Assembly (NCBI GenBank): GCA_000165345.1
Contig: CM000431.1
Span: 928,001-992,000, forward strand
Length of the DNA stretch: 64,000 nucleotides
Direction: 5' to 3'
How positions within the stretch are numbered: position 1 is the stretch's first letter; every line of letters starts with the position of its first letter. The notes beneath the pieces are model-generated. The model did not search any database, was not told where the DNA came from, and saw only the letters and a list, made by a program, of their open reading frames with translations. Below, piece by piece: positions 17,565 to 62,592 of this stretch. Made by a program: the position numbers and the translations under genes.

Positions 17565-17613
<49 letters not shown>

Positions 17614-17711
17614 AATGATGTTAAATGGAAGGTATTCCAGATTAAAGACCGGAAATAAGCAAAAGAGGATGATGTTTTGAATTTGAGGTCGCTGATGAAG
17701 TATTAAGGATT

Positions 17712-20691: not shown

Positions 20692-20771
20692 TAATTATAG
20701 ACTTCTTATATAGTAGAAAAAAAAAATTATAAACTTATAAATCCTAGCTCAAATTTCATTTAGTGTTATCG

Positions 20772-24200: not shown

Positions 24201-24625
24201 TTTCCAAAGTGAAGAAAAAGAGACTAAATTGACTTCAATAATATCAGTTATTAATATTAAATAAAATGTCTAAATTAGCTAAACAATTTGTTTCTACCTA
24301 TAAAATTCCCAGTTAAAAATTGAAATTATAATTATTTCAAAGCTAAAAATATGTAGAAAGATATTCAAGAGCGAAAATAGCATAAGAGTTTCAAAAAACA
24401 TTAACAAATATGATAATAATAATTACTTGCCAACAGAAAGATGTGATAAATTATTGAATTTTCATCCCATTTCAAATAAATTTGAATTTGAAAGTTTGAA
24501 TGGAATTGTGTATTTAATGAATTTTTGGTATTTCTAATAATTGGTTCAGAATATGAATAATATTTATTGTTTCTAATTTACTTATTGAAATCCTCATAAT
24601 ATGAAGATATCTAGTATACATTCTT

Positions 24626-26404: not shown

Positions 26405-26471
26405 TCTTGTAATACAAAAGATATTGATGATATAATTTTATTATTCAGGTTGAATTTTAATGGTAGTGAAA

Positions 26472-26512
<41 letters not shown>

Positions 26513-26822
26513 TCAACGAAACTTAACCTAAACTAATTATTATTATTCTTTTTTTTAATAACAATAATAATAATAATAATATAACTAAACTAGTATAAAT
26601 TTTTCAACTCAAATTTAGTAAAGTTATAATACAAGTATTTATTTCAAATATATTTACAGATTTCACTGGATCCAAATTTTGAATAATTATACAGCTCCAA
26701 TCTTGTTTATATTTGGAATTACCAAAGAAGAGTTAGTTATAGCGGAAATTATTGATAAGAATTATATAAAATATATATACATATATTATTTATTTATATA
26801 AACATATATATATATATATATA

Positions 26823-26856
<34 letters not shown>

Positions 26857-27857
26857 TATATATTTCAAGAAGGTTTGGAATCGGATTATAATTTCAAAAT
26901 TGCTTGGTTTATTGAAACTATTTATTACATATATATAATACTAATTTCCATATGCAGTCTTCTAAATTATAACAATGTTATTATTATTATTATTATATAT
27001 TACCTAAAGTTGGAATATACATAACCAAATTTGAACCTTATCAGTATATATGTAATTTTTTGTTTAAATAAAATACCAATTAATTATTAAAGTAATTTTC
27101 CAGTCTCCTTATTATGTCTTTAGCTCATTTAAATTGACTAGGCAAGTTGTTAGCCTCAAGAAATTTTGGGAATATTACTTTATAATAAAATGTTATGTTA
27201 ATCCCTCACCTAAATTAATCAAGTGCAAAAAAGGCCTCTTTTTACATTAAATTAAAAATTTATAATTAAATATTACTTCTTTATAATCCATTTATTCAAG
27301 ATATTAAAAAAGGCGGTATGCATGCAATTAGTGATATTATCATTTTGTGCTAATACCGGTATTAATAAAAATAATAATAATAAATAATATATAATGCAAT
27401 TATATATTATTATATTTATGGAAAAATTTTGAAATTAAAGAAAATATATTAATAAAGTTTTAATTCTAAATTTTGAAATTACATTAAAAAATTCCTGAAA
27501 AAAAAAATAATATATATATTTATATAAAGAGTTGTCAATTAATGAATTTTCATTTAATTCAATATTTAATTAATATTGATCGTGTGTTTTTTGAGCGGGA
27601 AAATTTTCCATATCTAGAAAAATTAAAATAATTTGGCAAATTAATATTAAAAATATTTTTTGATAATAAGAGGGGTATGGTGGGAATTTTGGTCAAAAAG
27701 AGCAAAAGAGAAGAAAGAAAAATATATTTTTTAAAAATTTAATTAAAGTTGAAATAAAATATAAATTTTATATATTAATATTAAGAATTTATTTGAAGAA
27801 TATTTAATAATTTTAATTTATCGAAATAAACTTCTCATTATTTGTAATTAAAGAGAA

Positions 27858-30800: not shown

Positions 30801-31160
30801 TATGAAGGTAGTTCTCAATTTGTGATTGGTTTAGATTTTACTTCTGATATAGAATTTGAGAATATGGCTTATTCAAGAGAATTAGCAAATAAGATTCAAA
30901 AGATACGTAAAGAGAAGAATATGGATCCAGATGCAAATGTAACAATTTATTTACAATTAATTTCTAATAAGAATGAATCAAAGAAATTTCATACAGTTAT
31001 GACATCTTATAATGATTATTTACAAAAGATTATTAGAAAGCCAATAAAGGAGATTTCAGATTCAGAATTATTGAATAGTATAAAAGATAGAATACTATTT
31101 GAATGTGAGATTGAAGTTGGAATGGATGATAAAGTTAATGTAATAGTGATAAAGAATTGA
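27858..31160 (+). CDS. Cytoplasmic isoleucyl-tRNA synthetase (class I).
   Basis: 1100 aa. It has the HIGH motif (PPFATGLPHYGHILAG) and the KMSKS motif (KMSKRLKNYPDP). The overall architecture, including the CP1 editing domain and the anticodon-binding C-terminal part, is typical of eukaryotic IleRS. Confidence 0.9.
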   Translation: MTTFSVVSERPDFPKLEEEILEYWRKINILKLTLEKTKGRPNYSFYDGPPFATGLPHYGHILAGTVKDVVTRYATQKGYYCERRFGWDCHGLPVEHEIDKQLNITSREDVLNKGIDFYNESCRSIVLRYTQEWKSTVERVGRLIDFDNGYKTMDLNFMQTVWWVFKQLFDKNLVYRAYRVMPYSTACATPLSNFECNLNYKDVNDPSVIITFPLLEDPNIQFLAWTTTPWTLPSNVAIAVHPEKKYLYFKTNHSNDITYVVAESRLEWVLSELKIKEYNIISDCIGAELHNKKVIPLFDYFKNHESSHQFWKILADNYVTDNTGTGIVHMAPAFGEDDYRVCVSNGIIDNHGTNLPCPMDSNGRFTEPVNDLKGIWFKDSDKIIKQELKKKSRLLTDNTCMHSYPFCWRSDTPLQYRAVPSWFINVESLKDKLLINNEKTNWIPNYVKEKRFHNWLQDARDWCVSRNRFWGTPIPIWVSEDYTIIKCIGSIEELKSLASNLKDKEINDIHRHFIDYIEIPDPRGNNYPPLKRIEEVFDCWFESGSMPYASINYPFENQELFNNIFPADFVGEGLDQTRGWFYTLMVLSTALFDQPAFKNIIVNGLVLASDGKKMSKRLKNYPDPLDIVNKYGADSLRLFLINSPVVRAETLRFKEEGVKDVIKDVLLPWYHCYRFFVQEAIRYENTNHNIKFKSNKQVIKNTNNIMDKWIYSEAQSLLKFVKTEMDAYRLYNVTPRLISFLDTLCNWYVRLNRDRMRGIYGMNDTKNSLEILYQVLMLTVKLLSPFIPFTCELLYSNLKNALIDELEEEKPETVHLLLIPEVEEEFIDKKIEEAINQLREIIVMGRNLREKKKVSVKTPLKSINIVHKDKSVLDYLVESKLINYIKEELNILQVITDNNSEFEKITKLVATPNFKVLGSRLGKSMKDVTNYIKNEMNNEIIQQFLKDGTIKIHGYELNLDEIIIQTVVDNNSVIDMNNEIIYEGSSQFVIGLDFTSDIEFENMAYSRELANKIQKIRKEKNMDPDANVTIYLQLISNKNESKKFHTVMTSYNDYLQKIIRKPIKEISDSELLNSIKDRILFECEIEVGMDDKVNVIVIKN

Positions 31161-31842
31161 ATATGATAGTATACGATAGGATAGGGTAGGATAAGGGATA
31201 ATGTTGTATTGTTTTGAATTGGATTTTACAATTGAAATTAATACAAATATGCATAATAAAAAGATTGAACAAGAAAATAAAATGACAGGATTAAATAAGA
31301 ATGAAAGAAAAGAAGAAAATTCTTTTAATTATTATAAAATAGATAGTAGTTTTTTTAATATTAATTAATAATAAAAATATGAACAATTTCTCAATTTGTA
31401 TTATATGAAGAGAATTTGTTAATATTTAATATTGTGTAACTATATTATCATAAACAATAAATCTAGATTTGAATATTTGTTTAACAATTTCTAAAGAAGT
31501 AAGACCCAAATTGAAATAATAATTACTTTGGAAATATGTTTCACATGGATTAATTAAAAAAAAAGAAATTATGTTATTAATAATAAGAAGAATCTTTTTC
31601 AATTAAATATTAAAAAATGTATAAGTTTTCTGTTTGGCGCCATAATCAAAAAAAGACAATGTTTGGGCGGTATAATTAGAAAAATAATAGAGACTGATAG
31701 AGTTAAAAAAAAAAAAAAAATAAAGATAAAAGGACAGAAAAGTAGTGACTCTCGTATTTATTTATTGACTTAAAAGGATCAAGATAGACGAGGATTTATT
31801 TTGAGGTAGTGAGAACGGAATATAATTAGAGGATAATCATCC

Positions 31843-33399
31843 ATGGGCAAACGTAAGGAATTAGAAGAGATGAGTGACGGCAAGATTGAGACTGTAATAA
31901 AGCCAGAAAGTAAGTCTCAGCCGATTGACACTTCAAACTGGCCGTTATTATTAAAGAATTATTCAAAGTTGAATGTTAGAACAGGGCATTATACTCCACT
32001 TCCATATGGTAATTCGCCTTTGAATAGAAATTTGGCAGATTATTTGAGTTATGGAATAATTAACCTTGATAAGCCAGCAAATCCATCATCCCATGAAGTG
32101 GTTGCATGGATTAAGAAGATCTTAAGATGTGAAAAGACAGGTCATAGTGGTACATTGGATCCAAAAGTTACAGGCTGTTTATTGGTTTGTTTAAATAGAG
32201 CAACAAGATTGGTAAAATCACAACAGAGTGCAGGTAAAGAATATGTCTGTATTGTAAGATTTCACTCAAGTGTTGGCGGTAAGTCAGCAGTGAGTAGATG
32301 TCTTGAAACTTTGACAGGAGCCTTATTTCAGAGACCACCAGTAATTTCAGCTGTTAAACGTCAGCTTAGAGTACGTTCAATATATGATTCTAAGCTTTTG
32401 GATTATGATGAAAAGAGGAACTTGGCTGTTTTTTGGGCAAAATGTGAGGCAGGGACATATATAAGAACAATGTGCGTTCATATGGGGTTGCTTTTAGGGG
32501 TTGGGGCTCATATGCAAGAATTAAGAAGGGTAAGAAGTGGTTGTTTATCAGAAAATGACAACATGGTAACAATGCACGATATTTTGGACGCTCAGTATAT
32601 GTTAGATAACTATAGAGATGAATCATATTTAAGACGTATTATTTCACCATTAGAATTACTTTTAACAGATTTACCAAGAATTGTAGTTAAGGATTCGTGC
32701 GTTAATGCAATTTGTTATGGCGCAAAACTTATGATTCCTGGTGTATTGAGATTTGATAATGGAATAGATGTTGGTACCGAAGTTGTAATGATGACAACAA
32801 AAGGTGAAGCTATAGCAATTGGTGTTGCTCAAATGACTACAGCTGTTATAGCTAGTGTAGATCATGGAGTAGTTGCTATAATAAAGAGAGTTATTATGGA
32901 GAGAGATACATATGATATGAGATGGGGACATGGTCCTAGAGCTTCTGAAAAGAAGAAGCTTATTTTAGGTGGAAAGCTTGACAAGCATGGAAAGCCAAAT
33001 GAGCAAACACCTGAATCCTGGCTTAAATACGAGGGTTATATTCCAAAGCTTACGGGCGATCATGATGATCAAAACGATGAGGGGAAAGATATTACAGGAT
33101 CAGGATTGGAATCAGAATCTAACTCTAATATAGAATCCAGCTCATCAAAAAAGAGAAAAGAAAAGAAAGAAACAAATGATGAGGAATCATCTTCATCATT
33201 TTCTTCTAAGAACAAAAAAGAAAAGAATAAGAGAAAGAGTACTGAGCCATTAAGTGAAAATGGAAGCAGTAGTAGCAGTAGTGATAGTAGTAGTAGCAAC
33301 AGCAGTAGTGATGATGAAAAGAGTAAATCCAAAGGGAAAAAGTCATCCAAAGATAAATCAAAGAAAAAAAAGAAACACAGTCGTATCAGTGAAGACTAG
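31843..33399 (+). CDS. CBF5: H/ACA snoRNP pseudouridine synthase Cbf5/dyskerin, with a K/S-rich C-terminal tail.
   Basis: 518 aa. The N-terminal motif [21 protein letters not shown] is dyskerin-like. The TruB catalytic region ([16 protein letters not shown]) and a PUA domain follow. A lysine/serine-rich tail is typical of Cbf5. Confidence 0.9.
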
Positions 33400-34288
33400 G
33401 GACTTTTACAAAGTTAGAATTCTTTTTCTATATCAAACAGGTGGATATACTATATTATGGCTATATTAATTTTCTAATTTACTCATGTCCACATTAATAT
33501 TCTTTACTTTTTCAAAAATAATTAAAATGTTCCCATTGAACATACTAATAGAACTTATTAGACTTTAAATATCATCTGAAATAGCTAATAAATCGCTTGC
33601 TAAGTTTTACAAGTACTATTTCTTTTAACTTTTTTGAGATTTATTTATTTTTTCTTTTTGAGATCGATTTGAGTTTGAATGGAGATAATTTTATTATTAT
33701 TATTGAATTGAGAAAAAATACTTTTAAAATAAATTAATATAGTGAAAAAAAAATTAAGTAAAAAAAATACGAGTTTCTAAATCTAGTATGTTCATAAATC
33801 TGTAGTATTTTTTAATGAAATTAAATTTTTCAAATGGCTTTAATAATAATGTAAAGTATTCTGGTACTCCATCATTTAGCATTAAATGACAATTAAAAAG
33901 CTTCCATGATTCCCGCCGGCGGCAACATGCAAAAATGTGGGTTTTGTGGGTTAGTGAGGGGAGAATAATCATTAAGCTAAAATATCAACAGGGAGGAATA
34001 CAAAGATAGTGAGAATTGGATCTTTGGAATAATTTTGCCACATTTTCTTTCGCTTGGCACTGTATCATCTTAGTAGGCTTTATCACGGTTGAATTTCCAG
34101 GTCTTATTATTTGATTAAAAGACAGCTTTTCGATCGATTAATTTTGAATTAATACTTGAAGCTCAGTCAAAATCCAAATTCTAAGGGTCAAGACTTATTT
34201 TCAAATAAAGGAGAGGCTAAGGAAAACTTATAAAGAGGATTTGATTAAATAATGCACTTTAGCTTTAGAGAATAAAGTAAAGTTCAAA

Positions 34289-35734
34289 ATGAGGTTGCAA
34301 TCCAAACAAAAATATCAGTTTCCTGATTTGGAGATGGGAGAGCTGATGAATGAGTTGGACATGTTAGGATTTGAAGTTGGAAGTAACTTTTGGGAAAGTA
34401 TTAACCATGAAATAGCAGTAGAACTTTATATGAACTGCTTGTCAATAGCATTAGAGATAGATACAGAGGATATTCGACCGGAAGAGTTAATAGGACAACT
34501 TCCATCTTCAGCTGCTGGAATAATATCTGAAAATGGAAAGAGTCAAATTAAACCAATAGGAAATTTGAGATTTTTACGTTACTGTAAGATCCTTTGGGTA
34601 ATGATAGGAATCGATGATTTTAGTATGAATGACATTTATAGACCAACTCCAGATAGAATTTATTCGTTCTTATGTGGATTTGTGAATTTGATGCGTTTCA
34701 AAGAAGATCGTTGGATGACTTATAAGAATGAGTTTTATGAAATTGAGGAAATTTTGGACTCTGTAGACAAATCTAATGAACAGATTAAACAAAAAAAAGA
34801 AGATTTGAATAATATTAGAGTAAGATATAACGAACAAAGTGGTGAAATTGCAAATAGGAGAAGGGATAATCAGGAATACCAGGAAAAGATGAGATCTTTG
34901 CACGGAGAATTTTTGCAAAATCAACAAGAACTTAAGAGATTAACACAGTCAGAGCATGATTTAAAGGAGCAGCTTAAAGATGTTGAGTTTAGGATTACCA
35001 CTGGAAATCAAGATATACAAGATTTAAAGGATCAAGTTGTTCAGTCCCCAGAAAGACTCAGAAATACTCTGGAAGAATTGAATAAATCTTTAGAGAATGA
35101 AAGAAAACAAATTGATCAAATTAGTATCAAAAATAATGAACTAAAGGAAAGACAAAATCTATTGCAAAAGACTGAAAAGAGGCTTGGTAAGGCAAAGACA
35201 TTCCTTGAACAAACTATTAGCGGAATTAAAGATGCAAACAATATTAAGCAATCAATCAAAGAAATCGAGCATCATATTGAGAAGGATAAATGGACAATTG
35301 AGCAAACTACAGAAGAAGAAAGGTTGCTTTTGCAAACTGTGGAACAGATTTCACTAAGAATTCAAAATAATCAACAACACTATGAGAGTTTAATTGAGGA
35401 GGCACAGACTTTACTTAATCAAGAGAAACAAAAGTTTGAGCAAGGACAGGAATTCCTTGATGTTCAAAGCAGTGAAGCATTTTCATTTGAGCGACAAGCA
35501 GAATTAATGGAAAAAGAGATCCAGAATTTAAAAGTATCTCATGAAAAGGCAATTAATGCACTCAATATTCAGCATAGCCAACTACTAAATGTTCTTACCA
35601 ATTATAAGAAACACTTAATCAGCAAACTGAATGACATAAACTCGAAGTATAACTTAAAGCTATTAGATGAAACATCCAAGGAAAATTCAACAATAAACTC
35701 TATAGAAAACACTATTGTGATGCAGCACAACTAG
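34289..35734 (+). CDS. NUF2: Kinetochore protein Nuf2-like (NDC80 complex subunit). It has an N-terminal calponin-homology-like domain and a long coiled coil.
   Basis: 481 aa. The N-terminal approximately 150 aa resemble the Nuf2 CH domain, including FSMNDIYRPTPDRIYSFLCGFVNLMRFKEDRW (compare the Nuf2 pattern DLxxPxxxRxxxxLSAxINFxxFRE). The rest is heptad-rich coiled coil. The size is right for Nuf2. Confidence 0.45.
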   Translation: MRLQSKQKYQFPDLEMGELMNELDMLGFEVGSNFWESINHEIAVELYMNCLSIALEIDTEDIRPEELIGQLPSSAAGIISENGKSQIKPIGNLRFLRYCKILWVMIGIDDFSMNDIYRPTPDRIYSFLCGFVNLMRFKEDRWMTYKNEFYEIEEILDSVDKSNEQIKQKKEDLNNIRVRYNEQSGEIANRRRDNQEYQEKMRSLHGEFLQNQQELKRLTQSEHDLKEQLKDVEFRITTGNQDIQDLKDQVVQSPERLRNTLEELNKSLENERKQIDQISIKNNELKERQNLLQKTEKRLGKAKTFLEQTISGIKDANNIKQSIKEIEHHIEKDKWTIEQTTEEERLLLQTVEQISLRIQNNQQHYESLIEEAQTLLNQEKQKFEQGQEFLDVQSSEAFSFERQAELMEKEIQNLKVSHEKAINALNIQHSQLLNVLTNYKKHLISKLNDINSKYNLKLLDETSKENSTINSIENTIVMQHN

Positions 35735-36315
35735 TAATTAAATTAAAAAATATATTCCAACCACTTATTTCAAATTTTATTATATTAAATCGATAAATTT
35801 AAATATAATTATAACTGTCTAAATCAATTTTTGTAATTAACTTATCCACCACTTTTCATACATTCATTCATGTTCTATTCTAACTTCCGTCAATGTTTAC
35901 CTAAATTCAGCTTTACAAGAAATGACTAAGGGGTAAAACCAATAAGGCGCCATTATTTGGCGGTAGACGTGGCGGCAAATTCCTTTTAAAAAATTATGGA
36001 CAAGATTGGGGAAAAAAAATAAACTGAAACTGTTGCTGAAGAGATTTATGCAATTTGAGAAGGTGATTAAACCGTTAATTCTCAGTGCATTTTCATGATA
36101 CTCTATTGGTTGAATATAGCGTAATATTTATACAAGATCTATGATTTTCTTTGATTAAGTGTGGAAACAATAATTGGCAATTTTAAGAATAAAGTGTTTA
36201 AAGATAAAAAAAAAAAAAAACTTTCTAATTATTCTGGAAGATAATATATACTGCTTTCATATAAGAACTGCCGACTTTCTCATTTCAAAAAAAATAGAGT
36301 GATTGTTTCGTAAAT

Positions 36316-36906
36316 ATGTTTCGTTGTAGAATCTGTACTGAGCCACCTTTTAGCCATTTTTTTAATTTGAGAATTTTTAATGGATATTTTTCTGATGAAA
36401 GGTCTAAAAAAACCCCTTACCAACTGAGTGAAGGAGATTCTGTCTATGATACTCAATCATATGGAAGCTCACTTTTAGCTACTCCATCCAACTTAAATTC
36501 ATTTGAGCCAAGAAGCTCTGAGGAAATTAATTCTATCTGTCTCAAATGGGAAAAATGTGTACATGAGAGAGGTAGGGAATTTTGGAGGACTTCAGAGTGT
36601 TTGATGGAGGTGCTTTCAGCAATAGCCCGGGGTGTTAACAATAACGATGACCCGATTTTGGGTGATCCCCAGAGATGTATTATGTGGTATGGACAGGTTT
36701 CGGCAATTGATGGATGTCCAGTCATAAGGATGAAGAGACCAGATGAGGTTGTTGAAACTCATACATATGTAAACAGAGCGTTAGTATTCTTGTATGCTAG
36801 CGATGAATCCTTTGAGGAGTTACAATTGAAGCCAAGAGTGGCATTCAATATGGCTTGTGGGAACCGTAGATGTGTTCATTTGCGTCATATATCTCTGGAC
36901 GACTAA
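36316..36906 (+). CDS. Hypothetical protein of 196 aa with N- and C-terminal CxxC pairs. It may be a zinc-ribbon protein.
   Basis: An ORF with noticeably higher local GC than its flanks. It has CRIC near the N-terminus and ACGNRRCVHLRH near the C-terminus. No family recognised. Confidence 0.35.
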   Translation: MFRCRICTEPPFSHFFNLRIFNGYFSDERSKKTPYQLSEGDSVYDTQSYGSSLLATPSNLNSFEPRSSEEINSICLKWEKCVHERGREFWRTSECLMEVLSAIARGVNNNDDPILGDPQRCIMWYGQVSAIDGCPVIRMKRPDEVVETHTYVNRALVFLYASDESFEELQLKPRVAFNMACGNRRCVHLRHISLDD

Positions 36907-37585
36907 CAGTATGGTTAATATGGAGTATTCATCATACGTAATAACAAATAGTAGTGATGATAGAAAGCTGTATATATTATATGCATGCTCTCCACTCGCT
37001 ACCGTATTTCATTTAAGAGCCAAGAAAAAAAAAATAATCAGAGTATTTCTTTTTTTTTTTTTTTTTAATTAACAATCTAAACAATCGAGTCTGAACTTCG
37101 ATATAAGCGTTGTTGAGGTGCTACTTAGCCATGAAGTATAATTACGCATGCATTAAACATTTTTATTTAATGCTTGATTTATCCAGTTCATTCAATTTAC
37201 AATGGGGAAATGTGAAGTCACAATCTAATCTTTCGAGGCTCTACTATTCAAATTTATTGATACTTAGACAGAAATCAGGCCTCCAATTAGAGCCAATAAG
37301 GTTTTGTATTCGGGTTTCTTATATGTTTGCGCGAAGTATTTATTAGAGTTCTTTTTGGTAACTTCTTTATTTACTCTTTTTTTTTGGTGTAATTAATTTA
37401 GCTCCTCTCCACACACACATGTATATCTTTTTAAATATTTCTCTCTATTCTTATCGTGTCTATTTATCTATGTTTAAAAGACTCTTAAAGCTTGTATTCA
37501 ATATCTTCTCATTCCCTTTCTCTACAAATGGTCTCTCTCTTGAACTCTCTTTAAAGTCATTTCAGACATTAAATTTTGGTCATCT

Positions 37586-37619
37586 CTGGCGCCAAACAAA
37601 GCCACATTGGCGCCAAAAT
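37586..37619. promoter_or_regulatory. Tandem GGCGCCAAA elements (CTGGCGCCAAAcaaagccacaTTGGCGCCAAAA) about 175 nt upstream of Snu114.
   Basis: Two copies of the palindromic E2F-type core TGGCGCCAAA lie 21 nt apart. Confidence 0.35.
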
Positions 37620-37792
37620 TAAACGAGTCAAGAATGATAATAAAGAACGTGCCTAAAGGAAACAAAAAATTTCTATATATATACAAATATATATATTTCT
37701 ATATATGTAGAAATATATGTAGAAATAAAGTAGAGTAATAATAATTAAGGCAAGAGTAATATTTAATAGCTCTGGGGGTTAATCATCTAAAG

Positions 37793-40700
37793 ATGGACTT
37801 GAATGATGTGTATGATGAATTTGGTAATTATATTGTGAAAGATGATAACGACTCAGAAGGAAGCGCAGATTGGGTGGGATCCGAAGAAACTTCAGATCCA
37901 GAAGATAGCCACAACAATAAAGATGGTGAAATTTTTGATCATGCCCAAAAAGAAGAGTCTGAAGATTCAGGAAGTGATATTTTTTCTGAAAATGAGTGGC
38001 AAAAGCATAAAGGACAAGTCAAAATACTTAATAAACAAAGCATAAAAGACGAGGATCATGAAATGACTCAGGAAACTGATGATGATAATAAGATTGTGCA
38101 ATTTGAAGATAAAGAGTATTATCCAGACCCATCTGATGTATATGGTGATGACGTTGAAATATTGGTACAAGAGGAAGACCACCAACATATAGATGAACCT
38201 CTCATTTCTCCCTTAAAAGAAAACAAATTTGACTTAATTGAAAAGAACCTTAAGGAAATGGAAACAACATTTTCTTATGAATTCTTGAGAGATTTAATGG
38301 ATAATTTGGAATTTGTTAGAAATATCTGTTTTATTGGTGAAATTCATTCTGGAAAAACCACATTCTTAGATATGTTGATTAAAAATACTCATTCTTACAA
38401 AGGAGATAAGAAAAATATTCCTTTACCGGAGAGATATTGTGATTCAAGAAAAGATGAACAGGATAGAGGAATTAGTATTAAAGCTTCTCCAATATCTTTG
38501 GTACTACCAAACTCTATGGATAAATCTTTCTTATTCAATATTTTAGATACCCCTGGTCATGTTAACTTTGTGGATGAAGCATGCATTTCAGTAAGAATTT
38601 CAGAAGGAGTTATACTTTTCTTGGACTGTGTTATTGGTTTAACTAAACAATTAGAAAGATTGCTTCATTATTGCTTATCAGAAGGGAAGAAGGTTGTTCT
38701 AGTAATTAATCAAATTGACAGACTTGTCTTAGAGTGTAGACTACCTCCATATGATGCTTATTTTAAACTTAAGCATTTAATCTCTGCAGTTAATAACTCT
38801 ATTTTGGAATTTGCATCTATTCATGGATTTAATACTGATGAAACTAGAAATTTATTATTTGGTCCAGAAAGAGGTAATGTTGGATTTGCATCTGGTAGAT
38901 ATAACTTTTTCTTCACTTTAAATTCATTTGCTAGAAAGTATTTAAAACATAATGGTATTACCAATAACTGTATTCTGATTGAAAAATCTCAACAATTATC
39001 TTTCAGATTATGGGGAGATTATTATTTTAATAAAGAAAATAATTCATTTGAAACAGACTCAAATGTTTCTCAAGATAGATCTTTTGTAGAATTTATCTTA
39101 AATCCAATATATAAGTTACTTGGATATACGGTATCGGAAGAAGATGATAAATTATCAAGCTTTTTGAAGACGGTTGGAATATATCTGACAAAGAAAGAAC
39201 TTAAATTAAATGTTAAGGAACGTCTTGAAATTGTATGTAAACGTTTCTTTGGAAATTCTGCCTCATTTACTGACTTTATCACAAAAAATATCCCAAATCC
39301 TATTCAAAGTGCTAGTGATAATGTTGAGAGAATATATACTGGGCCAATTAATGATAGAATATCATCATTTATGAGAAAATATGAAAGAAATAATTGTCCT
39401 TTAGTTGTTTTTATTATAAAACAATTCCACTCTGAAGATATGGAATCATTTTACTCATTTGGAAAGATATTTTGTGGGACTTTATCAAAAGGTGATCGTG
39501 TTAAAGTTCTAGGTGAATCTTTTTCCAAAGATGATCCTGAGGATTTTACTACGAGATATATTGATAATCTTTGGATCTTACAAAGTAGGTATAAAGTAGA
39601 AGTTACAAGTGTACCTGCAGGAAATTGGGTACTAATTTCAGGTCTTGGAAGCTCTGTAACAAAACCATGTACATTAATTGGACATAATTCATTTATTAAG
39701 GATGATGAAATATATCCTTTACGTAATATTAGGCTTTTGAATAAGAGTGTAATAAAGTTAGCTCTTGAACCACATAATCCAGCAGATTTACCAAAAATGC
39801 TTGAAGGGTTAAAAAGTATTTCAAAAGCTTACACATGTTCAGTGACAAAAGTAGAGGAGAATGGAGAACATGTTATGTTTGGTACAGGAGAATTACAGAT
39901 GGATTGTATGATGCATGATTTAAGATGTTTATATGGAAATTTGGATGTAAAAGTTTCAGATCCAATGGTACATTTTTGTGAGACTGTTTTAGAGAAATCA
40001 GTAGTGAAATGTTTTGGAGATTCAACTAATGGATTGAATAGACTTTATATTACATCAGAACCTTTAGATCGAGGTATTTCAGATGAATTGGAGAATGGTA
40101 TAATGAAAGTTTCAATTTCAGATACTAAAGATCCAAAATATTATGGTAATTTATTAGCAGAGAAATATGGTTGGGATAAGCTTGCAGTAAAGTCATTATG
40201 GGCATTTGGACCAGATCCTAGCATAGGAAGTAATGTTTTATTGGATGATACTTCTTCTATAACAGTTGATAAAAAACTTTTATATGATGTTAAGGATGAT
40301 ATAATTCAAGGATTTAACTGGGCAGTTAAAGAAGGTCCTTTACTTGAAGAGCCAATAAGAAATGTAAAATTTAAGATACTTGATGTAAACTTATCTTCTG
40401 ATAAAGTTAGTAGGGGGACAGGGCAAATAGTTCCAGCATCTAGAAGAGCTTGTTACACATCGATGTTTTTAGCATCTCCAAAGATTTTGGAACCAATTAG
40501 TCTAGTAGAGATAATATGCCCATCAGGTTTGGATGAATTTATTAATAATATAGTATCAAAAAGAAGAGGCCATGCAGGCAAGGAAATTCCAATTCCTGCT
40601 TCACCATTAGTTACAATACTAGCATTTGTTCCAGCAATAGAAACCTTTGGATTTGAAACAGATTTAAGAATTCATACAAGCGGACAAGCATTTTGTACAA

Positions 40701-40900
40701 GTTGTTTCGACCACTGGGCAATAGTTCCAGGTAATCCATTGGATAGGAATATTTCATTAAGACTTTTAGAGAAAGCTCCTATTCCACATTTAGCTAGAGA
40801 TTTTCTTCTTAAAACAAGAAGAAGAAAAGGTCTAAGTGATGATGTTAATATTCAAAACTTTATCACTTGTCCAGAACTTATTAAAGCTTTGAATTATTAA
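37793..40900 (+). CDS. SNU114: U5 snRNP 116-kDa GTPase (Snu114/EFTUD2), an EF-2-like spliceosomal GTPase.
   Basis: 1035 aa. The acidic N-terminal extension begins MDLNDVYDEFGNYIV, the Snu114 hallmark. Then come the G1 motif GEIHSGKT and the G3 motif LDTPGHVNF. EF-2 domains II-V follow (ELQMDCMMHDLR..., GQIVPASRRACYTS). Confidence 0.8.
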   Translation: MDLNDVYDEFGNYIVKDDNDSEGSADWVGSEETSDPEDSHNNKDGEIFDHAQKEESEDSGSDIFSENEWQKHKGQVKILNKQSIKDEDHEMTQETDDDNKIVQFEDKEYYPDPSDVYGDDVEILVQEEDHQHIDEPLISPLKENKFDLIEKNLKEMETTFSYEFLRDLMDNLEFVRNICFIGEIHSGKTTFLDMLIKNTHSYKGDKKNIPLPERYCDSRKDEQDRGISIKASPISLVLPNSMDKSFLFNILDTPGHVNFVDEACISVRISEGVILFLDCVIGLTKQLERLLHYCLSEGKKVVLVINQIDRLVLECRLPPYDAYFKLKHLISAVNNSILEFASIHGFNTDETRNLLFGPERGNVGFASGRYNFFFTLNSFARKYLKHNGITNNCILIEKSQQLSFRLWGDYYFNKENNSFETDSNVSQDRSFVEFILNPIYKLLGYTVSEEDDKLSSFLKTVGIYLTKKELKLNVKERLEIVCKRFFGNSASFTDFITKNIPNPIQSASDNVERIYTGPINDRISSFMRKYERNNCPLVVFIIKQFHSEDMESFYSFGKIFCGTLSKGDRVKVLGESFSKDDPEDFTTRYIDNLWILQSRYKVEVTSVPAGNWVLISGLGSSVTKPCTLIGHNSFIKDDEIYPLRNIRLLNKSVIKLALEPHNPADLPKMLEGLKSISKAYTCSVTKVEENGEHVMFGTGELQMDCMMHDLRCLYGNLDVKVSDPMVHFCETVLEKSVVKCFGDSTNGLNRLYITSEPLDRGISDELENGIMKVSISDTKDPKYYGNLLAEKYGWDKLAVKSLWAFGPDPSIGSNVLLDDTSSITVDKKLLYDVKDDIIQGFNWAVKEGPLLEEPIRNVKFKILDVNLSSDKVSRGTGQIVPASRRACYTSMFLASPKILEPISLVEIICPSGLDEFINNIVSKRRGHAGKEIPIPASPLVTILAFVPAIETFGFETDLRIHTSGQAFCTSCFDHWAIVPGNPLDRNISLRLLEKAPIPHLARDFLLKTRRRKGLSDDVNIQNFITCPELIKALNY

Positions 40901-41247: not shown

Positions 41248-41577
41248 TTACTCGTATGATCTTATGATATCAGAATCACCTGGGTCTGTAACAGTCATGC
41301 AGCTAACACGATATAGTTTACCACAAGAGGTACCTAAATCATTGTTACCACCTTGGAAATGGTGAACACCAATCTTGGAGAGCATTGCATAGTATTCAAT
41401 TTCGGATCTTCTTAGAGGAGGGCAGTTGTTTGAGATTATAACCAAACGAGCAGTACCATTTCTGATAGATTTAACAGTTGAACGGTATCCAAGACAGACC
41501 TTACCACTCTTCATGACAAGTTGTAAGCGACTGGTCATACCTTCAGATTTACCCTTAGATGAACCCTTCTTGGCCAT
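41248..41577 (-). CDS. RPL30: 60S ribosomal protein L30e.
   Basis: 109 aa. It has [69 protein letters not shown] and [10 protein letters not shown], which is near-canonical L30e. Confidence 0.85.
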
Positions 41578-42360
41578 TTTTATTTATTCCTCTTCACAAA
41601 CTAAGATCTGAGTCTTGAAATTATTTTAACTTTTTTCTTTTAGATAACTTATTTCAATTTCTTGAAACTCGTCTTGTTTAAGAATAATTAGTTATTTCCC
41701 AATAATTTGTCTAATTGGACTCGCGCCATAAACAAAAAAATATAAATTCTTTTTTCTTTTAAAATTATTATTTAATTAAATGTATAATATATGATGTATA
41801 TATATTTTATATATAAATATATATAAAATATATATTATAAATTTGTACCTGAATTTTTTTTTGTGTATTATAATCTCTATAGACTATTACTATTTATTTA
41901 TTCTTCGCGTCTCATTTCTTTTATAATAATTAAAAACAAAATACCGCCAAAACTAGACACGTGTATTGGCGGGTTTTATTTGGAAATTACTTAAAAATAT
42001 TGCTAGTGGCGATAATATTTTACATGTAAAAAAAAAACAGAGCACACTAAAATACTTGTAAAGGGGGGAAATAGAAAATAAAAAAATTATAAATAATTTT
42101 TTAAAAATAAGAAAAGTGGTGCATTTGATTGAAAAAAAGAACTTTATTCCGAGATTATGATGTTGTTGGTGTTCTTGACTAATTCAGAATAAGAAGAAAG
42201 TGTTAATTTAGGAAGAAACCTACAGAAAGGGTCGAATTAAATATAATAAATAAGTAATTAATTATTATTGGAAGGATAATTGTGCGAAGTTTATGAAATT
42301 AGAGGTCAATACGAATTAATTTTGAGTTTTTATCATTATCATTGAATTAAAGTAATAGTC

Positions 42361-45300
42361 ATGAATTTAACCAATGAGAATATTTCAAACCAGGGCCAGG
42401 AGATTTCAAGGAATGGGAATTTTGAGATAATTGATAATGGGAAATCCGAAGATAATAGTAAGGAAATAATTCTTGAGAAATGTAGGGTAAAAGTTTCTTC
42501 AGATGGAGTTTATGAATCATTGCCAGTTGAAAGAAAAAGTATCGATGCTAAATCCAGTGAGAAGGCAAGCGATAAAATTCAAGGGGATACTGTTTTTGAA
42601 GTTTTACCTAGATCAGAGTCTAATGCAGATGCAAGTTATAATAAAGCTGGTGACTTTGTTAATGATATCGGGATTTTTGAGTCATTACCAAAATCAACTT
42701 CTGATGCTGATTATAAGTATAATGAAAGGGTGGATATTACACAAGATAGGATTGTTTTTGAAGTATTACCACGCTCTGATAATATTGTTCACTATGATAA
42801 TGACACCAGTAATGAATCTTCTATTAAAGTAAATGAAATGATTAAAAAGAAGGAGTCAGAATTGAATAATATTTTAAAAGAGCAGAAAATTGATGGAGAT
42901 ATTACTAGTAGAAATGGGAATATAGAAAATGATCCTACTTTAGGTTTAAGTATTTATAACGAAGAATCAGTTTCTCCTCCATCTGAAACTTCGATGACCA
43001 TTTTTGAGAATTTACCAATTAAGAAAGAAAATATCGATATCGATAACGAGTTTCAATCAAATTCTATTTTATCAGACAATAATATAATTGAGAATCATCA
43101 ATCAATTTTTGAAACTGCAAACTTGTCCAGATCAAATAGTTCTTCTCATATTTCTAGCTTAAAGGATGGTGAGGAAGCTGAAAGACTAACGAGTAATGAA
43201 GTGAGTGAGCATAGTGAAATTAGTAATGATGAATGCGAAAAAGATCTAAAAAGTAATTTTGAGCTTAATAATCAATTAATTACTGATTTTAATCAAGATG
43301 TAAAAACTCAAGATAAAAAAGAGCTTTCACCACAAGTTGAGAGCAAAGCAAATCTTAATATTGTTGTAAATAGTGAGAAGTCGGTCTTTGAGGTAGTTCC
43401 ATCTGAACAATCAAGAGCTGATATTGGGTATAATTCCAAAATACCACTAAGTTTTGATGAAAGGACGGTTTTTGAATCAAAGCCTGTAGCGAATTCAAAT
43501 GCAGATGTTAGCTATAATTCAAAGGTTGGTATCACAAAAGCAGAAGAAAGGTCAGTATTTGAGTCATGTCCAATTACTGATTCGAAGGCAGATGTTAGTT
43601 ATAATTCAAAATTTCAGCCAAGAAAAGACGAAAAAATTATATTTGAATCGAATCCAATTGCTAACTCGAATGCAGATGTTGGATACAATACAAAAATTGG
43701 CTTAGAAAGACAGGAAAAGTCAACTTACGAATCAATCCCTACTATCGGGGTAGTAGCAGATGTTAGCTACAAATCCAAAGCACAAACTAATTCTGGAAAT
43801 GAAAAGTCTATTTTTGAATCTGTTCCAATTTCCAATTCAATAGCTGATGTCAGTTATAATTCTAAATCACAGCCTATTAAAGAAGAAAAGGTTGTATTTG
43901 AATCAATTCCATCAGAAAATTGTAAGATAGATGTGAGTTATAATTCCAAGTTGGATTTGAAAGGACAGGAAAAGTCAGTATTTGAATCCAATCCTATGAT
44001 GACTTCCAATGCTGATGTAGGTTACAATTCAAAGCCAGAAATAAATTTGAATGAGAAATCCGTCTTTGAGTCGGTTCCATCCAATATTTCAAAAGCCGAT
44101 GTGAGTTATAACTCGAAAATAACTAATACTTCTGAGAAGTCAATCTTTGAATCGGAGCCAATAAAAAATGTTAATATAGACGTGAGTTATAATTCCAAGT
44201 TGGATTTGAAAGGACAGGAAAAGTCAGTATTTGAATCCAATCCTATGATGACTTCCAATGCTGATGTAGGTTACAATTCAAAGCCAGAAATAAATTTGAA
44301 TGAGAAATCCGTCTTTGAGTCGGTTCCAACCAATATTTCAAAAGCTGATGTGAGCTACAACTCTGTAGTAGCCAATACTTCTGAGAAGACCATTTTTGAG
44401 TCAGAACCAAGAAGGAACTCAGTGGCGGATGTAAGCTATAACTCCAGTTTGATTCCTATTTCTAAGGATGAAAAGACTGTATTTGAATCCAATCCAAATG
44501 TTGATTCAAAGGCAGATGTTAGTTATAATTCTAAAATAGAATTAAAAAAAGACGAAAAGTTTGTATTTGAGTCAAATCCTAATGTTGATTCTAATGCAGA
44601 TGTTAGTTATAATTCAAAGCTTCAGCCAAGAAAAGACGAAAAATTCATATTTGAATCTAATACGACAGTTAACTCTAAGGCAGATGTTAGTTATAATTCA
44701 AAATCTGAACCTAAAATGAACGAGAAGTCCGTATTTGAGTCCAGTCCAATTCTTAGCTCAGTTGCAGATGTTGGGTACAACACCAAAGGAGTTGGTATGA
44801 CTCAAGAAAAATCTGTCTACGAATCAGTTCCAATTAGTAAATCTAAAATAGATGCTGGCTATGATACAAAGTTGGACTTTACTCATGAAAATAATAAAAC
44901 TATATTTGAATCAAACCCATCTTGTGAATCTATTGCGGATGTTGGATATAATTCAAAGATTGAAACAAGAACAGAAGAAAAATCAGTTTATGAGTCAAAT
45001 TACGATAAAGTTTCTAAGGCTGATGCTAGATATAATTCAGATTCAAGCCAAATCTATCCTCCAGAGAAGATGGTATATGAATCAACTCCTGTTGTTGGAT
45101 TAGCTGTGGATGCAAGGTTTGCAGATCAAAACAATACAAACGAAGAGAAGCAAACAGTTTTTGTATCTCTTCCAAGGTCTGAGTCAGTTTTTGATGCAAG
45201 CTACTCGTTAAATAATGAATATAGGCAGGAAAAGACAATATTTGAGTCAGTACCCAATACAAAAGGGATCAGAATAGATGCAAGATCCAGTGATACCTCT

Positions 45301-45384
45301 GAAATAATGAATTTTCAGTCTAAGACAGTTTTTGAATCAGTACCCAAACAGTCTTATGCTGATGCAAAAAGCGGGAATATATAG
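42361..45384 (+). CDS. Tandem-repeat protein of 1007 aa. The first 330 aa or so are non-repetitive except for three degenerate repeat copies. About 24 tandem 27-29-aa repeats follow, with consensus EKSVFESxPxxNSxADVSYNSK(x5-7). No signal peptide is evident.
   Basis: Direct reading of the translation shows the periodicity (...SVFESNPMMTSNADVGYNSKPEINLNEK / SVFESVPSNISKADVSYNSKITNTSEK / SIFESEPIKNVNIDVSYNSKLDLKGQEK ...). The repeat family is not one I recognise. Confidence 0.6.
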   Translation: MNLTNENISNQGQEISRNGNFEIIDNGKSEDNSKEIILEKCRVKVSSDGVYESLPVERKSIDAKSSEKASDKIQGDTVFEVLPRSESNADASYNKAGDFVNDIGIFESLPKSTSDADYKYNERVDITQDRIVFEVLPRSDNIVHYDNDTSNESSIKVNEMIKKKESELNNILKEQKIDGDITSRNGNIENDPTLGLSIYNEESVSPPSETSMTIFENLPIKKENIDIDNEFQSNSILSDNNIIENHQSIFETANLSRSNSSSHISSLKDGEEAERLTSNEVSEHSEISNDECEKDLKSNFELNNQLITDFNQDVKTQDKKELSPQVESKANLNIVVNSEKSVFEVVPSEQSRADIGYNSKIPLSFDERTVFESKPVANSNADVSYNSKVGITKAEERSVFESCPITDSKADVSYNSKFQPRKDEKIIFESNPIANSNADVGYNTKIGLERQEKSTYESIPTIGVVADVSYKSKAQTNSGNEKSIFESVPISNSIADVSYNSKSQPIKEEKVVFESIPSENCKIDVSYNSKLDLKGQEKSVFESNPMMTSNADVGYNSKPEINLNEKSVFESVPSNISKADVSYNSKITNTSEKSIFESEPIKNVNIDVSYNSKLDLKGQEKSVFESNPMMTSNADVGYNSKPEINLNEKSVFESVPTNISKADVSYNSVVANTSEKTIFESEPRRNSVADVSYNSSLIPISKDEKTVFESNPNVDSKADVSYNSKIELKKDEKFVFESNPNVDSNADVSYNSKLQPRKDEKFIFESNTTVNSKADVSYNSKSEPKMNEKSVFESSPILSSVADVGYNTKGVGMTQEKSVYESVPISKSKIDAGYDTKLDFTHENNKTIFESNPSCESIADVGYNSKIETRTEEKSVYESNYDKVSKADARYNSDSSQIYPPEKMVYESTPVVGLAVDARFADQNNTNEEKQTVFVSLPRSESVFDASYSLNNEYRQEKTIFESVPNTKGIRIDARSSDTSEIMNFQSKTVFESVPKQSYADAKSGNI
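43933..44430 (+). repeat. Two tandem near-identical copies of a 249-bp unit. Each unit holds three protein repeats and lies inside the repeat-protein CDS.
   Basis: The stretch gtgagttataattccaagttggatttgaaaggacaggaaaagtcagtatttgaatccaatcctatgatgacttccaatgctgatgtaggttacaattcaaagccagaaataaatttgaatgagaaatccgtctttgagtcggttcca... occurs at 43933 and again at 44182. Only a few substitutions separate the copies over about 180 bp. Confidence 0.8.
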
Positions 45385-45451: not shown

Positions 45452-47605
45452 CTATTCCTCAGTTTTTTTGTCTTGGGGTGTGGGGTAAGTAACTTGTGTA
45501 ATAACCTTTGGACTATCATCAGTTTTGAGATTCTCCGATTGAATTACTTGTTGCATAGCTTGGGAAGCTTCAAAACCGAGTCTAACTGGTTCCTTATTTA
45601 CATGAAGGTAGAGTAGATAGGATGAGGGGGTAGATTCTGGATGTTCTTTTGATTCTTCTGTTTGATTTTCATCTTTGCAATCTTCCACAGTAGCTTGAGT
45701 AATTTTGTTTACAGCATGTACTGTTGTATAGTCTAATTTACCTTGAGAATCAATATTTGGCCAAACAACTGCGAAACCTTTCTTAGGTTTTATTTTGATT
45801 CCAGCATAAGGGAAGTCTAATTCTCCTCCATTTTCAACATCAGAAAGGAAAACTGAAATTGTATGAGTTCTATTATCTCCATCATGGTGTTCTTTAATGT
45901 AATCATTGACGGAATATTTGTGTACCAGGATTGGCTCCATATAAAGATTGCTAGAGTCTACAAGAATTCCAAGCCTATTTTCAATCTGTCTAATAAGAGG
46001 AGTTTCTTCTGGTTGAATACAGGCAGTTGAAGATCTACAAAAATCCTCATCTTCATCTTGTTCATTTTTATAATCTTGATCATCTGTTTTTTCATCTTTA
46101 ATTTCATCAGTTTCGGATTTCTTGCTTTCTTTTTTGGCTATTGATATCTTTGAATCCTCTAGTCTATCTTGGACAAGGGAAATAATCTCATCACATTCAT
46201 CTTGGTTTAGAGCATTTGGGATAATAAATATCTTAGGATTAACCTTACTGGCAACTATTCTCTGTAAAAGAGCAGGTTTCTTGTTTTTACTAATATCAAT
46301 TTCGGAATTGTTATTTAATGGCTCGGTACCGATTGTCGCTTGAATACCATGTTGTCTTAATAATTGAGCTGCAGCATTTAGTTGACTAGCGATAAATTGT
46401 TGTTGCTGTTGTTTGATCATTGCCTCAATCTTTGACATGTCAGTGGTTGGCTGCATAATATTTGGTTGAATAGACTCTGGAATAACGGCATTTCCCATAT
46501 TTGGAACAGCTCCAGCTCCAAGATTCACTCCTGGAATATTCATTCCTGAGATATTCAACCCTGCAGCAGTGCCAATTCCTGGAATACCACCAAGAGATCC
46601 AAGAGCTGCACTTGAAATCTGATTTGCAGTCTGTGAAGACGAACCTACATCTTTTGTTGGAATTAAATTGGGGTTTCCCAAGAATGCAGCAAGCTGAGGA
46701 GTTAGCTGAGATTGTGTAGCTGAAGCAGCTCCAACTGGTAAGTTAGCGCTTCCAGGCATTACACCAGTTACTCCTGTTGGAGCCCCTAAATTCCCTGGGA
46801 TTCCTGAAATTCCTGGAATTCCAGCAAGAGAACCCAAGGAATGCCCGGCATTGGTAGCCTGGCCCAAGTTTTGTGGAGCAACAGAAGCAGAAGCAGAGGA
46901 TGGGGATTGCTTGCTCTCAGCTGAATTAGTATTGGAAGCGGTCTGAGTATTATTTTGAAGTTCGGATAGAGCCAAAGCAATCTTTTGTTTCTGCATCCAA
47001 GTAGCCAAGTTCAAATCTTGTCCTTGAATACCACACAAATTAGGTACTCCTGCCTGCATATTTGGAAATTGAATTGGCTGTAAAGTTGGTTTCTGAACAT
47101 TTAAGCCCAAAGAAGCAAGGACATTGGGGTCTAACGCTCCAACTGGTGGAATGTTATAACTTGTGGTTGTAGAGCTTGGAATCATATTATTCAAATTTAA
47201 GGTTGCTCCCAAGGTCTGAGCTGGAATTCCAGAACTAAGACCAAGTCCAAGACTTGGAGTATTCGCTATACCGGGAGGTATCTGGTCTTTTGAAGCATTA
47301 ATTTGCATTCTCATCATAAATTGTTGTAATTGTTCCATATTCATTGCAGACATTGGGAATTGAGATGTGGGGATGTTTGTTGCTGTAACTCCACTTCCTG
47401 GCTTTCCTACTTGAGTATTATCAGCTGTAATTCCTGTTCCACTAGTTTGCCCTTGTAATAAATTATTAGTTTCTAATTTTGAAGTATCTGATTCTGAAAT
47501 AGGTACCATATTAATATAGGTACCTAATAACTTAGGTTCTGGCGGTGTGACTCCTCTAATAACATTCTTTGTTTCTTCATTAACGCTTGAATTATTTTCA
47601 GACAT
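45452..47605 (-). CDS. Prolyl 4-hydroxylase-like 2-oxoglutarate/Fe(II) oxygenase. It has a long G/S/A/N/Q-rich low-complexity N-terminal region.
   Basis: 717 aa. The C-terminal approximately 200 aa carry P4Hc-type motifs. There is an HxD facial triad (HHDGDNRTHTISVFLSDVENGGELDFPY), then KPKKGFAVVWPN, and a distal His (HAV). The N-terminal 380 aa or so are low complexity. Confidence 0.55.
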   Translation of the reverse strand: MSENNSSVNEETKNVIRGVTPPEPKLLGTYINMVPISESDTSKLETNNLLQGQTSGTGITADNTQVGKPGSGVTATNIPTSQFPMSAMNMEQLQQFMMRMQINASKDQIPPGIANTPSLGLGLSSGIPAQTLGATLNLNNMIPSSTTTSYNIPPVGALDPNVLASLGLNVQKPTLQPIQFPNMQAGVPNLCGIQGQDLNLATWMQKQKIALALSELQNNTQTASNTNSAESKQSPSSASASVAPQNLGQATNAGHSLGSLAGIPGISGIPGNLGAPTGVTGVMPGSANLPVGAASATQSQLTPQLAAFLGNPNLIPTKDVGSSSQTANQISSAALGSLGGIPGIGTAAGLNISGMNIPGVNLGAGAVPNMGNAVIPESIQPNIMQPTTDMSKIEAMIKQQQQQFIASQLNAAAQLLRQHGIQATIGTEPLNNNSEIDISKNKKPALLQRIVASKVNPKIFIIPNALNQDECDEIISLVQDRLEDSKISIAKKESKKSETDEIKDEKTDDQDYKNEQDEDEDFCRSSTACIQPEETPLIRQIENRLGILVDSSNLYMEPILVHKYSVNDYIKEHHDGDNRTHTISVFLSDVENGGELDFPYAGIKIKPKKGFAVVWPNIDSQGKLDYTTVHAVNKITQATVEDCKDENQTEESKEHPESTPSSYLLYLHVNKEPVRLGFEASQAMQQVIQSENLKTDDSPKVITQVTYPTPQDKKTEE

Positions 47606-60192: not shown

Positions 60193-62592
<2,400 letters not shown>

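Follow-up and report, generated by a model that had tools for sequence, protein, structure and literature searches.

The window analysed here comprises 64,000 nucleotides of the Cryptosporidium parvum genome (NCBI GenBank assembly GCA_000165345.1, contig CM000431.1, positions 928,001 to 992,000 of the forward strand) and contains, at 42361..45384 on the forward strand, a complete single-exon gene for a large protein made up mainly of tandem repeats. The open reading frame (ORF) runs from an ATG, a start codon shared with the orthologous protein P0001, to a TAG stop and encodes 1007 amino acids (aa); the reading frame is closed by a stop six codons upstream, which rules out any extension. The ORF DNA is 100% identical in assemblies GCA_015245375.1 and GCA_048859185.1, and 13 kb of the window are identical to contig CP044420.1 of the former, which is the C. 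parvum IOWA-ATCC long-read assembly (PMC12179316). Two NCBI C. parvum assemblies annotate a gene for the identical protein, and an exact-protein look-up returned 4 contigs in total. The identity of the ORF DNA in two independent C. parvum assemblies, a comparison that the initial annotation had proposed, excludes an assembly artefact: clearly, the repeat protein is a real C. parvum protein of 1007 residues, in keeping with the assignment to Cryptosporidium implied in the initial annotation.

Along the protein 30 motif anchors were located, corresponding to 24 regular units and to six degenerate ones in the N-terminal third, which start at aa 50, 78, 105, 132, 214 and 249. The protein opens with a non-repeat leader (aa 1-49; 42361..42507, forward strand, as are all parts of the gene), conserved in P0001, which shows 57% identity over aa 1-286, starting from residue 1. 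Next to it lies a cluster of four degenerate units (aa 50, 78, 105 and 132; 42508..42810), for example VFEVLPRSESNADASYNK, defined by motif anchors and having an equivalent in C. andersoni, and in a central position there are two relic units, IFENLPIK... and IFETANLS... (aa 214 and 249; 43000..43158), which are reciprocal best matches of units 5 and 6 of P0001. A central linker (aa 267-338; 43159..43374), acidic, Ser-rich and unit-free as judged from motif anchors and composition, leads into the main array, which occupies aa 339-1007 (43375..45381) and consists of 24 units, each of 27-30 aa, with the pattern EK[ST]-[VI]-[FY]-E-S-x-P-x3-S-x-A-D-V-[SG]-Y-N-S-K followed by a variable spacer. The 23 full regular units measure mostly 28 aa (14 units), the others being of 29 (5), 27 (3) and 30 aa (1), and the last unit is of 18 aa. 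This terminal unit, SKTVFESVPKQSYADAKSGNI (45319..45381), carries the sole C. parvum copy of a last-unit signature, A[HD]AK[AS]G. At the DNA level, Tandem Repeats Finder (TRF) reports periods of 84 and 87 bp within the array, with 60-75% matching, and also a 249-bp (three-unit) tandem duplication at 43916..44410, of 91% identity, in which units 13-15 correspond to units 16-18.

This layout agrees with the initial annotation as to the approximately 24 tandem repeats, for which it had given 27-29 aa, and departs from it in the degenerate N-terminal copies, of which it had noted three instead of six. The core, which had been called invariant, is nearly but not strictly so. Indeed, in its first half V or I is found in 23 of the 24 units, F in 20 (Y in the other 4), E and S in 23 each and P in 22; in the second half the occupancies are 18 for S, 17 for A, 22 for D, 17 for V, 21 for S/G, 21 for Y, 19 for N and 21 for S/T. 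The protein contains 25 instances of the motif [VIT][FY]E[SV].P, against 0.013 expected from 2000 protein shuffles (maximum 1), and a six-frame search of the whole window yields one stray match outside the gene. The composition is that of an acidic protein (pI 4.69) rich in S, E, N and K, with 4.4% Thr and 4.1% Pro. The initial annotation had seen neither a signal peptide nor a transmembrane (TM) segment and, in agreement, hydropathy analysis reveals no TM helix (maximum Kyte-Doolittle value of 0.57 in a 19-aa window), the N-terminus is hydrophilic, and neither a signal peptide nor a tail of the glycosylphosphatidylinositol (GPI) type was found. In the charge-hydropathy plot of Uversky the protein falls just within the disordered region (H 0.416 vs 0.426 for the boundary).

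A profile of 37 columns was built from 48 units and searched against 1.84 billion representative proteins, resulting in 38 matches at E<=1e-3, 12 of which at E<=1e-10, with values outside the genus ranging from E=4.8e-26 to 1e-3. Three of these are false positives, namely P0010 (a saposin) and P0025 and P0031, which resemble translated DNA repeats; the other 35 proteins share the unit in tandem. Among the apicomplexans these comprise Toxoplasma gondii TGME49_205320, proteins of Plasmodium relictum, P. fragile and P. yoelii, each of which is entered in databases as a conserved protein of unknown function, and a protein of the marosporidan Rhytidocystis; among the dinoflagellates, they comprise proteins of Tripos and Pyrodinium. 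Further members derive from metagenome (JGI/IMG) and Logan assemblies, and those not looked up are dinoflagellate-like in composition. Restriction to Cryptosporidium is contradicted by this distribution, and the orthologue search that had been suggested at the outset recovers both orthologues in two other Cryptosporidium and relatives in other apicomplexans. When P. yoelii P0017 is used as phmmer query, each Plasmodium species contributes a single orthologue, always annotated as of unknown function, and this search in the reverse direction also retrieves Cryptosporidium P0001 at E=2.6e-6. Both the profile search and phmmer yield a single match per apicomplexan genome, and the family member in Cryptosporidium is apparently single-copy. 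A profile of a two-unit alignment found nothing in a word-indexed database.

The consensus of 183 distinct non-Cryptosporidium units reads [QPK]-[ST]-V-F-E-S-x-P-x-x-S-x-A-[DA]-[VA]-x-[HY], with hydrophobicity alternating in its second segment (A9, V11, H/Y13) and some 11 unconserved spacer residues per unit (spacers <0.7 bits). The period is well kept, 73% of 162 non-Cryptosporidium spacings falling between 26 and 30 aa, with a mode of 27. The last-unit signature is present in 9 of the 35 members, in each of which it is the last unit that carries it; it is common to C. parvum, whose terminal unit ends in ...SYADAKSGNI before the stop, to C. andersoni and to dinoflagellate members. Directly before unit 1, 13 of the 35 members have a poly-K/R tract (>=6 of 10 residues; e.g. 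P0003, P0007, P0011, P0012, P0015, P0023 and P0028), and many dinoflagellate sequences have an acidic tail of the SESEYETDDE type after the last unit. Polybasic tract and acidic tail are absent from all three Cryptosporidium proteins: the Cryptosporidium lineage lost or never had them, and they may be features of lineages and not family-defining. Judged from sequence, the family is defined by tandem [ST]-V-F-E-S-x-P-x2-3-S-x-A-[DA]-[VA] units that recur every 26-30 aa, the last of them being distinct, and the C. parvum gene is the Cryptosporidium member of this unnamed family, which extends across Myzozoa. The C. parvum array is the longest seen in it.

Some individual members deserve mention. 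P0026 (911 aa, from an AT-rich organism) has 11 near-identical 27-aa units, GTYENQPSATSGAHVRSGSSGVQKMDS, which have been amplified recently, unlike the old array of C. parvum. In the dinoflagellate-like P0018, P0030, P0033, P0034 and P0036, spacings of 38-45 aa result from an inserted helix-like A-x-x-L-I-x-x-A-A-x-E, a second recurrent element that Cryptosporidium does not have. P0015 (JGI metagenome, 515 aa, on a 2-kb contig) contains, upstream of the repeats, the C-terminal portion of a UDP-glucose pyrophosphorylase domain, which may reflect a genuine fusion or an ORF that runs on; this UDPGP match is the sole real Pfam domain in the 19 members scanned, in which no Pfam repeat family was matched. 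A tubulin-tyrosine-ligase-like N-terminal domain considered for P0023 has no Pfam support.

The initial annotation had assigned the repeats to no family that it recognised. In line with this, the repeat falls into no family described so far: PDB sequences contain neither a family member nor a match to the profile, and the only Pfam match of the C. parvum protein is spurious. The whole protein scores 56.7 bits against PF03873 (RseA_C), above the cutoff of 23 (E=2.8e-15), and RseA_C is likewise among the precomputed annotations of the orthologue P0001, which would suggest that the protein carries the anti-sigma-E domains of RseA. However, no single unit reaches the cutoff (18.8, 13 and <10 bits), and the unit matches cover positions 2-24 of the 55 of the profile only, whereas genuine E. 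coli RseA is matched over positions 1-55 and also has RseA_N. The non-array part, that is the N-terminal third, gives no RseA_C match, and RseA_N is not matched anywhere in the repeat protein. The likeness to E. coli RseA is limited to the first 24 profile positions, roughly ETPVFNTLPMMGKASPVSLG against EKSVFESNPMMTSNADVGYN of the repeat; moreover, RseA is a bacterial membrane protein and the C. parvum protein lacks a TM segment. Membership of RseA_C is thus rejected, the chance that such domains are present being negligible, and the score arises because a chance likeness to a short segment is added up across more than 20 repeats. The label is a systematic database error, which automated annotation will propagate. 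Both this false label and the family itself, in its breadth, period and cap unit, appear to be undescribed, the gene being already present in public assemblies as unannotated or hypothetical.

Within the genus, a full-length homology search retrieves only two relatives: P0001, of 764 aa and 49% identity, from a third Cryptosporidium species (Logan assembly of SRR31860986), and C. andersoni cand_028250, which is partial, as its contig stops within the repeat gene. Snu114/EFTUD2 and L30e are upstream neighbours at both orthologue loci, and the P0001 locus keeps in addition a downstream gene for a 2-oxoglutarate (2OG)-oxygenase-like protein and one for a DEAD helicase; the orthologues are syntenic. 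The architecture is conserved apart from the C-terminal array, which has 24 units in C. parvum, 14 in P0001 and at least 2 in the partial C. andersoni protein. When C. parvum and P0001 are compared, the edge units (1-3, 5-8, 12-13 and 27-30) are collinear reciprocal best matches and units 14-26 are mostly closest to their own paralogues, which indicates that units have been gained or lost in the interior of the array.

Synonymous differences between units are saturated, the proportion of synonymous differences (pS) being about 0.75, and the median DNA identity of units of equal length is 0.60; the array is therefore old and not a slippage-prone minisatellite. The proportion of nonsynonymous differences (pN) in the conserved core columns is 0.18, with pN/pS of 0.23, as compared to 0.86 in the variable core columns and 0.67 in the spacers: the core is kept by purifying selection. 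Between units 14 and 17 the identity is complete (100%), and the three-unit duplication, which is the only recent event in the array, is the only plausible hotspot for changes in repeat number. Polymorphism of repeat number between isolates, which had been anticipated, is not supported, the ORF being identical in both assemblies compared at the DNA level and the array being old; unit number varies between species. By counting genes from Hsp90 (cgd3_3770), the repeat gene would tentatively be about cgd3_3890-3900. Of 9 C. parvum genomes, 5 are reported to carry an insertion in a gene listed as "cgd3_3900, uncharacterized protein" (PMC7718795, PMC4746124); by gene order, cgd3_3900 could be the repeat gene or its low-complexity neighbour, and the link is unproven. 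The variable-number tandem repeat marker "Cgd3_3850", so printed in the Results of one of these papers, was considered as a candidate and discarded, being a hexanucleotide locus that the Methods of that paper name cgd2_3850.

The low-complexity neighbour lies on the reverse strand at 45452..47605 and encodes 717 aa, with an N-terminal half rich in Q, G, S and P and a C-terminal 2OG-Fe(II) oxygenase region (PF13640, 26.4 bits, just below the cutoff of 27). It is placed tail-to-tail with the repeat gene at a distance of 67 nt, and the adjacency is also found at the P0001 locus (L003). It is conceivable that this oxygenase might hydroxylate the near-invariant Pro of the repeats, a purely hypothetical relation of enzyme and substrate. 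Upstream, the divergent L30e gene (41248..41577, reverse strand) is separated from the repeat gene by an AT-rich intergenic region of 783 bp (41578..42360), with a 19-bp AT repeat in 1.9 copies at 41798-41834, presumably the promoter region shared by both genes. The genes further upstream (12126..40900) are all housekeeping, namely Hsp90, DNA ligase I, isoleucyl-tRNA synthetase, dyskerin/Cbf5, Nuf2 and Snu114/EFTUD2, and their order gives no indication that they and the repeat gene belong together functionally as a cluster. At 60193..62592 on the forward strand, an ORF of 799 aa resembles the acidic Trypan_PARP repeat below the threshold (30 bits vs a cutoff of 100) and is probably another low-complexity acidic repeat protein.

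As to cellular location, we have relied on the Toxoplasma relative. TGME49_205320, listed only as hypothetical, is found in the Toxoplasma hyperLOPIT atlas as a protein of 655 aa with pI 5.3 and neither signal peptide nor TM segment, assigned to the cytosol with p ~0.999, and its CRISPR fitness score of +0.85 indicates that it is dispensable in tachyzoites. The C. parvum protein also has neither signal peptide nor TM segment, and we thus infer that it is soluble and cytosolic, which is in line with the intracellular, non-secreted protein that had been envisaged. Two roles that had been put forward with it fare less well: a cytoskeletal or apical-complex scaffold disagrees with the fractionation of the Toxoplasma relative with the cytosol and with the acidic character of the protein (pI 4.7), and nucleic-acid binding with this same acidity and with the lack of a matching domain. 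The Toxoplasma protein is also among the homodimer candidates of a cross-linking mass spectrometry (XL-MS) study, with a top cross-link K401-K401 in the repeat peptide TVFESQ[K]SLTSTADFR, a hint at self-association; the part of the XL-MS supplement that was available contains no cross-links from it to other proteins. It has also been recovered together with numerous RNA-binding proteins on a BKI-1708 matrix, as well as with PFKII; these leads are weak and non-specific. In the supplements of the P. falciparum spatial proteome, neither of the identifiers looked for appears.

The fold of the repeats was predicted with AlphaFold2 (AF2), as the initial annotation had recommended with a solenoid in mind, in two runs: one on units 7-12 with an in-register multiple sequence alignment (MSA) of 6 sequences, and another on units 19-24 with an MSA of 18 sequences that included dinoflagellate and other distant blocks. 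The first run resulted in a predicted local distance difference test score (pLDDT) of 67.6 and a predicted template modelling score (pTM) of 0.60, with two strands per unit, xSVFES and ADVSYNSK; the second gave the same strand pattern with a pLDDT of 75.6, a pTM of 0.71 and 25 residues at >=90. Taking these models as a guide, we suggest, at slightly less than even confidence, that the protein is a β-solenoid rod with the role of a multivalent scaffold. Each unit would form one strand-turn-strand coil, with xSVFES as strand 1 and ADVSYNSK as strand 2, and the coils would stack into a right-handed rod, in which F, A, V and Y would line up as internal ladders and the invariant E, D, N and K would give a repetitive surface. 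At the canonical 4.8 Å per coil, 24 coils would correspond to a rod of about 11-12 nm, the length of which would be set by the number of units, and the rod would serve as a multivalent scaffold that may self-associate. A more far-reaching version, which we consider possible but doubtful, would see in the VFESxP units of 27-28 aa an undescribed class of eukaryotic β-solenoid, ancestral to Myzozoa and provided with a conserved capping unit, forming a cytosolic rod that either self-associates or shows a periodic acidic/polar surface to a ligand and that would have undergone a five-fold expansion in Cryptosporidium, to 30 coils.

Several observations weigh against the β-solenoid scaffold. The prediction itself is upheld in part: AF2 does predict a β-solenoid, but in each run only one of the five networks is confident (75.6, 56.0, 43.9, 42.5 and 38.7 in the second), and AF2 is known to over-predict β-solenoids for repeat sequences. 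In addition, the MSAs used were pseudo-alignments of repeat blocks and not of orthologues, around 11 residues per unit are unconserved, strand 1 is conserved on both of its faces, which simple packing does not explain, and the longer spacings of 38-45 aa do occur in some dinoflagellate members. The K401-K401 cross-link could equally be intramolecular, joining adjacent identical repeats, and the location proposed is that of the Toxoplasma relative and not of the Cryptosporidium protein itself. Finally, as the composition is borderline, rich in S, N, K and E and just inside the disordered region of the charge-hydropathy plot, disorder has to be taken seriously as an alternative. In such a case, the protein would be an array of linear motifs, each 16-residue core (SVFESxPxxSxAD) docking to, or being modified by, one conserved cytosolic partner or enzyme, and the whole acting as a multivalent sponge or condensate scaffold. 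Along with the hydrophilic composition, the restriction of conservation to a short core, the low confidence of four of the five AF2 networks, the known bias of AF2 towards solenoids and the irregular spacings in some members speak for this alternative, as does the conserved S-x-A-D, which in our own reading of the motif matches the minimal CK2 site S-x-x-D/E. On the other hand, the period of 26-30 aa is kept from dinoflagellates to apicomplexans with free spacer sequence, a regularity that independent motifs do not need, and the alternation of hydrophobic positions in the second segment and the positionally conserved terminal unit weigh against it as well. To our knowledge, and from comparison by eye, the core fits none of PAM2, LC8 TQT, 14-3-3 mode 1, RVxF, SxIP, LxVP, LIR and nebulin SDxxYK. 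Since the period persists despite free spacers, apolar positions alternate and the terminal unit is distinct, a folded repeat fits better than free motifs, and we regard the disordered array as a real but minority possibility.

A conserved period combined with free spacer sequence is also the ruler-like pattern of a lattice binder, and the protein could resemble tau or SPM1, with one unit per lattice period on microtubules or on another polymer of the pellicle or apical region. Indeed, apicomplexans own tandem-repeat microtubule proteins, SPM1 with its 32-aa repeats being an example. However, the Toxoplasma member is assigned to the cytosol and not to the cytoskeletal or inner membrane complex (IMC) classes, and is dispensable; the C. 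parvum protein is acidic; no microtubule- or actin-binding repeat (tau/MAP, nebulin, SPM1-like) is found in Pfam at E<=10; and no family member occurs among the PDB chains, which include apicomplexan cytoskeletal cryo-electron microscopy entries. We therefore consider a lattice binder unlikely, and it ranks below the disordered motif array, which in turn ranks below the β-solenoid scaffold. A large repeat array in a parasite, with 24 units in one species and 14 in another, would further evoke a secreted or surface mucin-like antigen in which unit number varies between isolates under immune selection, as would the insertion reported in cgd3_3900 if this were the repeat gene. Against it stand the lack of a signal peptide, TM segment or GPI-like tail, a composition that is not Thr/Pro-rich, the identity of the ORF DNA in both assemblies compared, the old units under purifying selection and the existence of relatives in free-living dinoflagellates. 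The antigen reading is thus largely refuted and highly improbable, and the preference of the initial annotation for an intracellular protein over a surface mucin is supported. Together with the RseA and artefact readings, it is effectively excluded.

What had been a hypothetical protein now stands for a family that can be defined by its profile, its fixed period and its cap signature and that is conserved in a clade to which the parasites of malaria, toxoplasmosis and cryptosporidiosis belong. Myzozoa are, by our own estimate, roughly a billion years old. The practical significance is limited for now: Toxoplasma tachyzoites can dispense with their family member, and nothing ties the Cryptosporidium protein to virulence.

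The closest known systems are the members in Toxoplasma (TGME49_205320) and Plasmodium (P. yoelii YYC_04069, P. fragile AK88_02458 and P. cynomolgi PCYB_032710), which have the same core, TVFESQ..S.A[DH].R.GE, with a period of 27-28 aa, and, like the C. parvum protein, are encoded by one gene per genome and have no signal peptide, TM segment or Pfam domain. They differ in having approximately 4-6 units, as compared to 30 in C. parvum, long low-complexity N-termini, a polybasic tract before unit 1 (Toxoplasma) and a Pro position often occupied by Q, R or L. What they lend to the C. parvum protein is its location in the cytosol and dispensability in tachyzoites only. The dinoflagellate and Rhytidocystis proteins (Tripos fusus EP00419_P078253, Pyrodinium bahamense EP00418_P019251 and Rhytidocystis EP00921_P012691) share core, period and last-unit signature, but have 3-14 units, a gap of two residues between P and S, where Cryptosporidium has three, and both the poly-K/R tract and the acidic tail that Cryptosporidium is without. 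Toxoplasma SPM1, a subpellicular microtubule protein, reportedly consists of 32-aa tandem repeats whose number varies between genera, as in the C. parvum protein; unlike it, SPM1 is said to be basic and microtubule-bound and to have a different repeat. A separate homologue of SPM1, of about 5 repeats, exists in Cryptosporidium. With respect to right-handed β-solenoids of known structure (the autotransporter passenger UpaB 6bea, SufB/SufD, curli CsgA 8enq/8c50 and the CAP/TBCC/RP2 β-helix), the identity to the C. parvum protein is 5-11%, which amounts to no sequence relationship, and the likeness concerns the predicted fold class only. The predicted coil, of 28 aa, would be longer than theirs and have a long unconserved arc, and most of these analogues are secreted bacterial proteins, whereas the C. 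parvum protein would be cytosolic and eukaryotic. If the β-solenoid is true, the family would thus provide an unusual cytosolic eukaryotic β-helix repeat and a natural test case for the solenoid bias of AF2.

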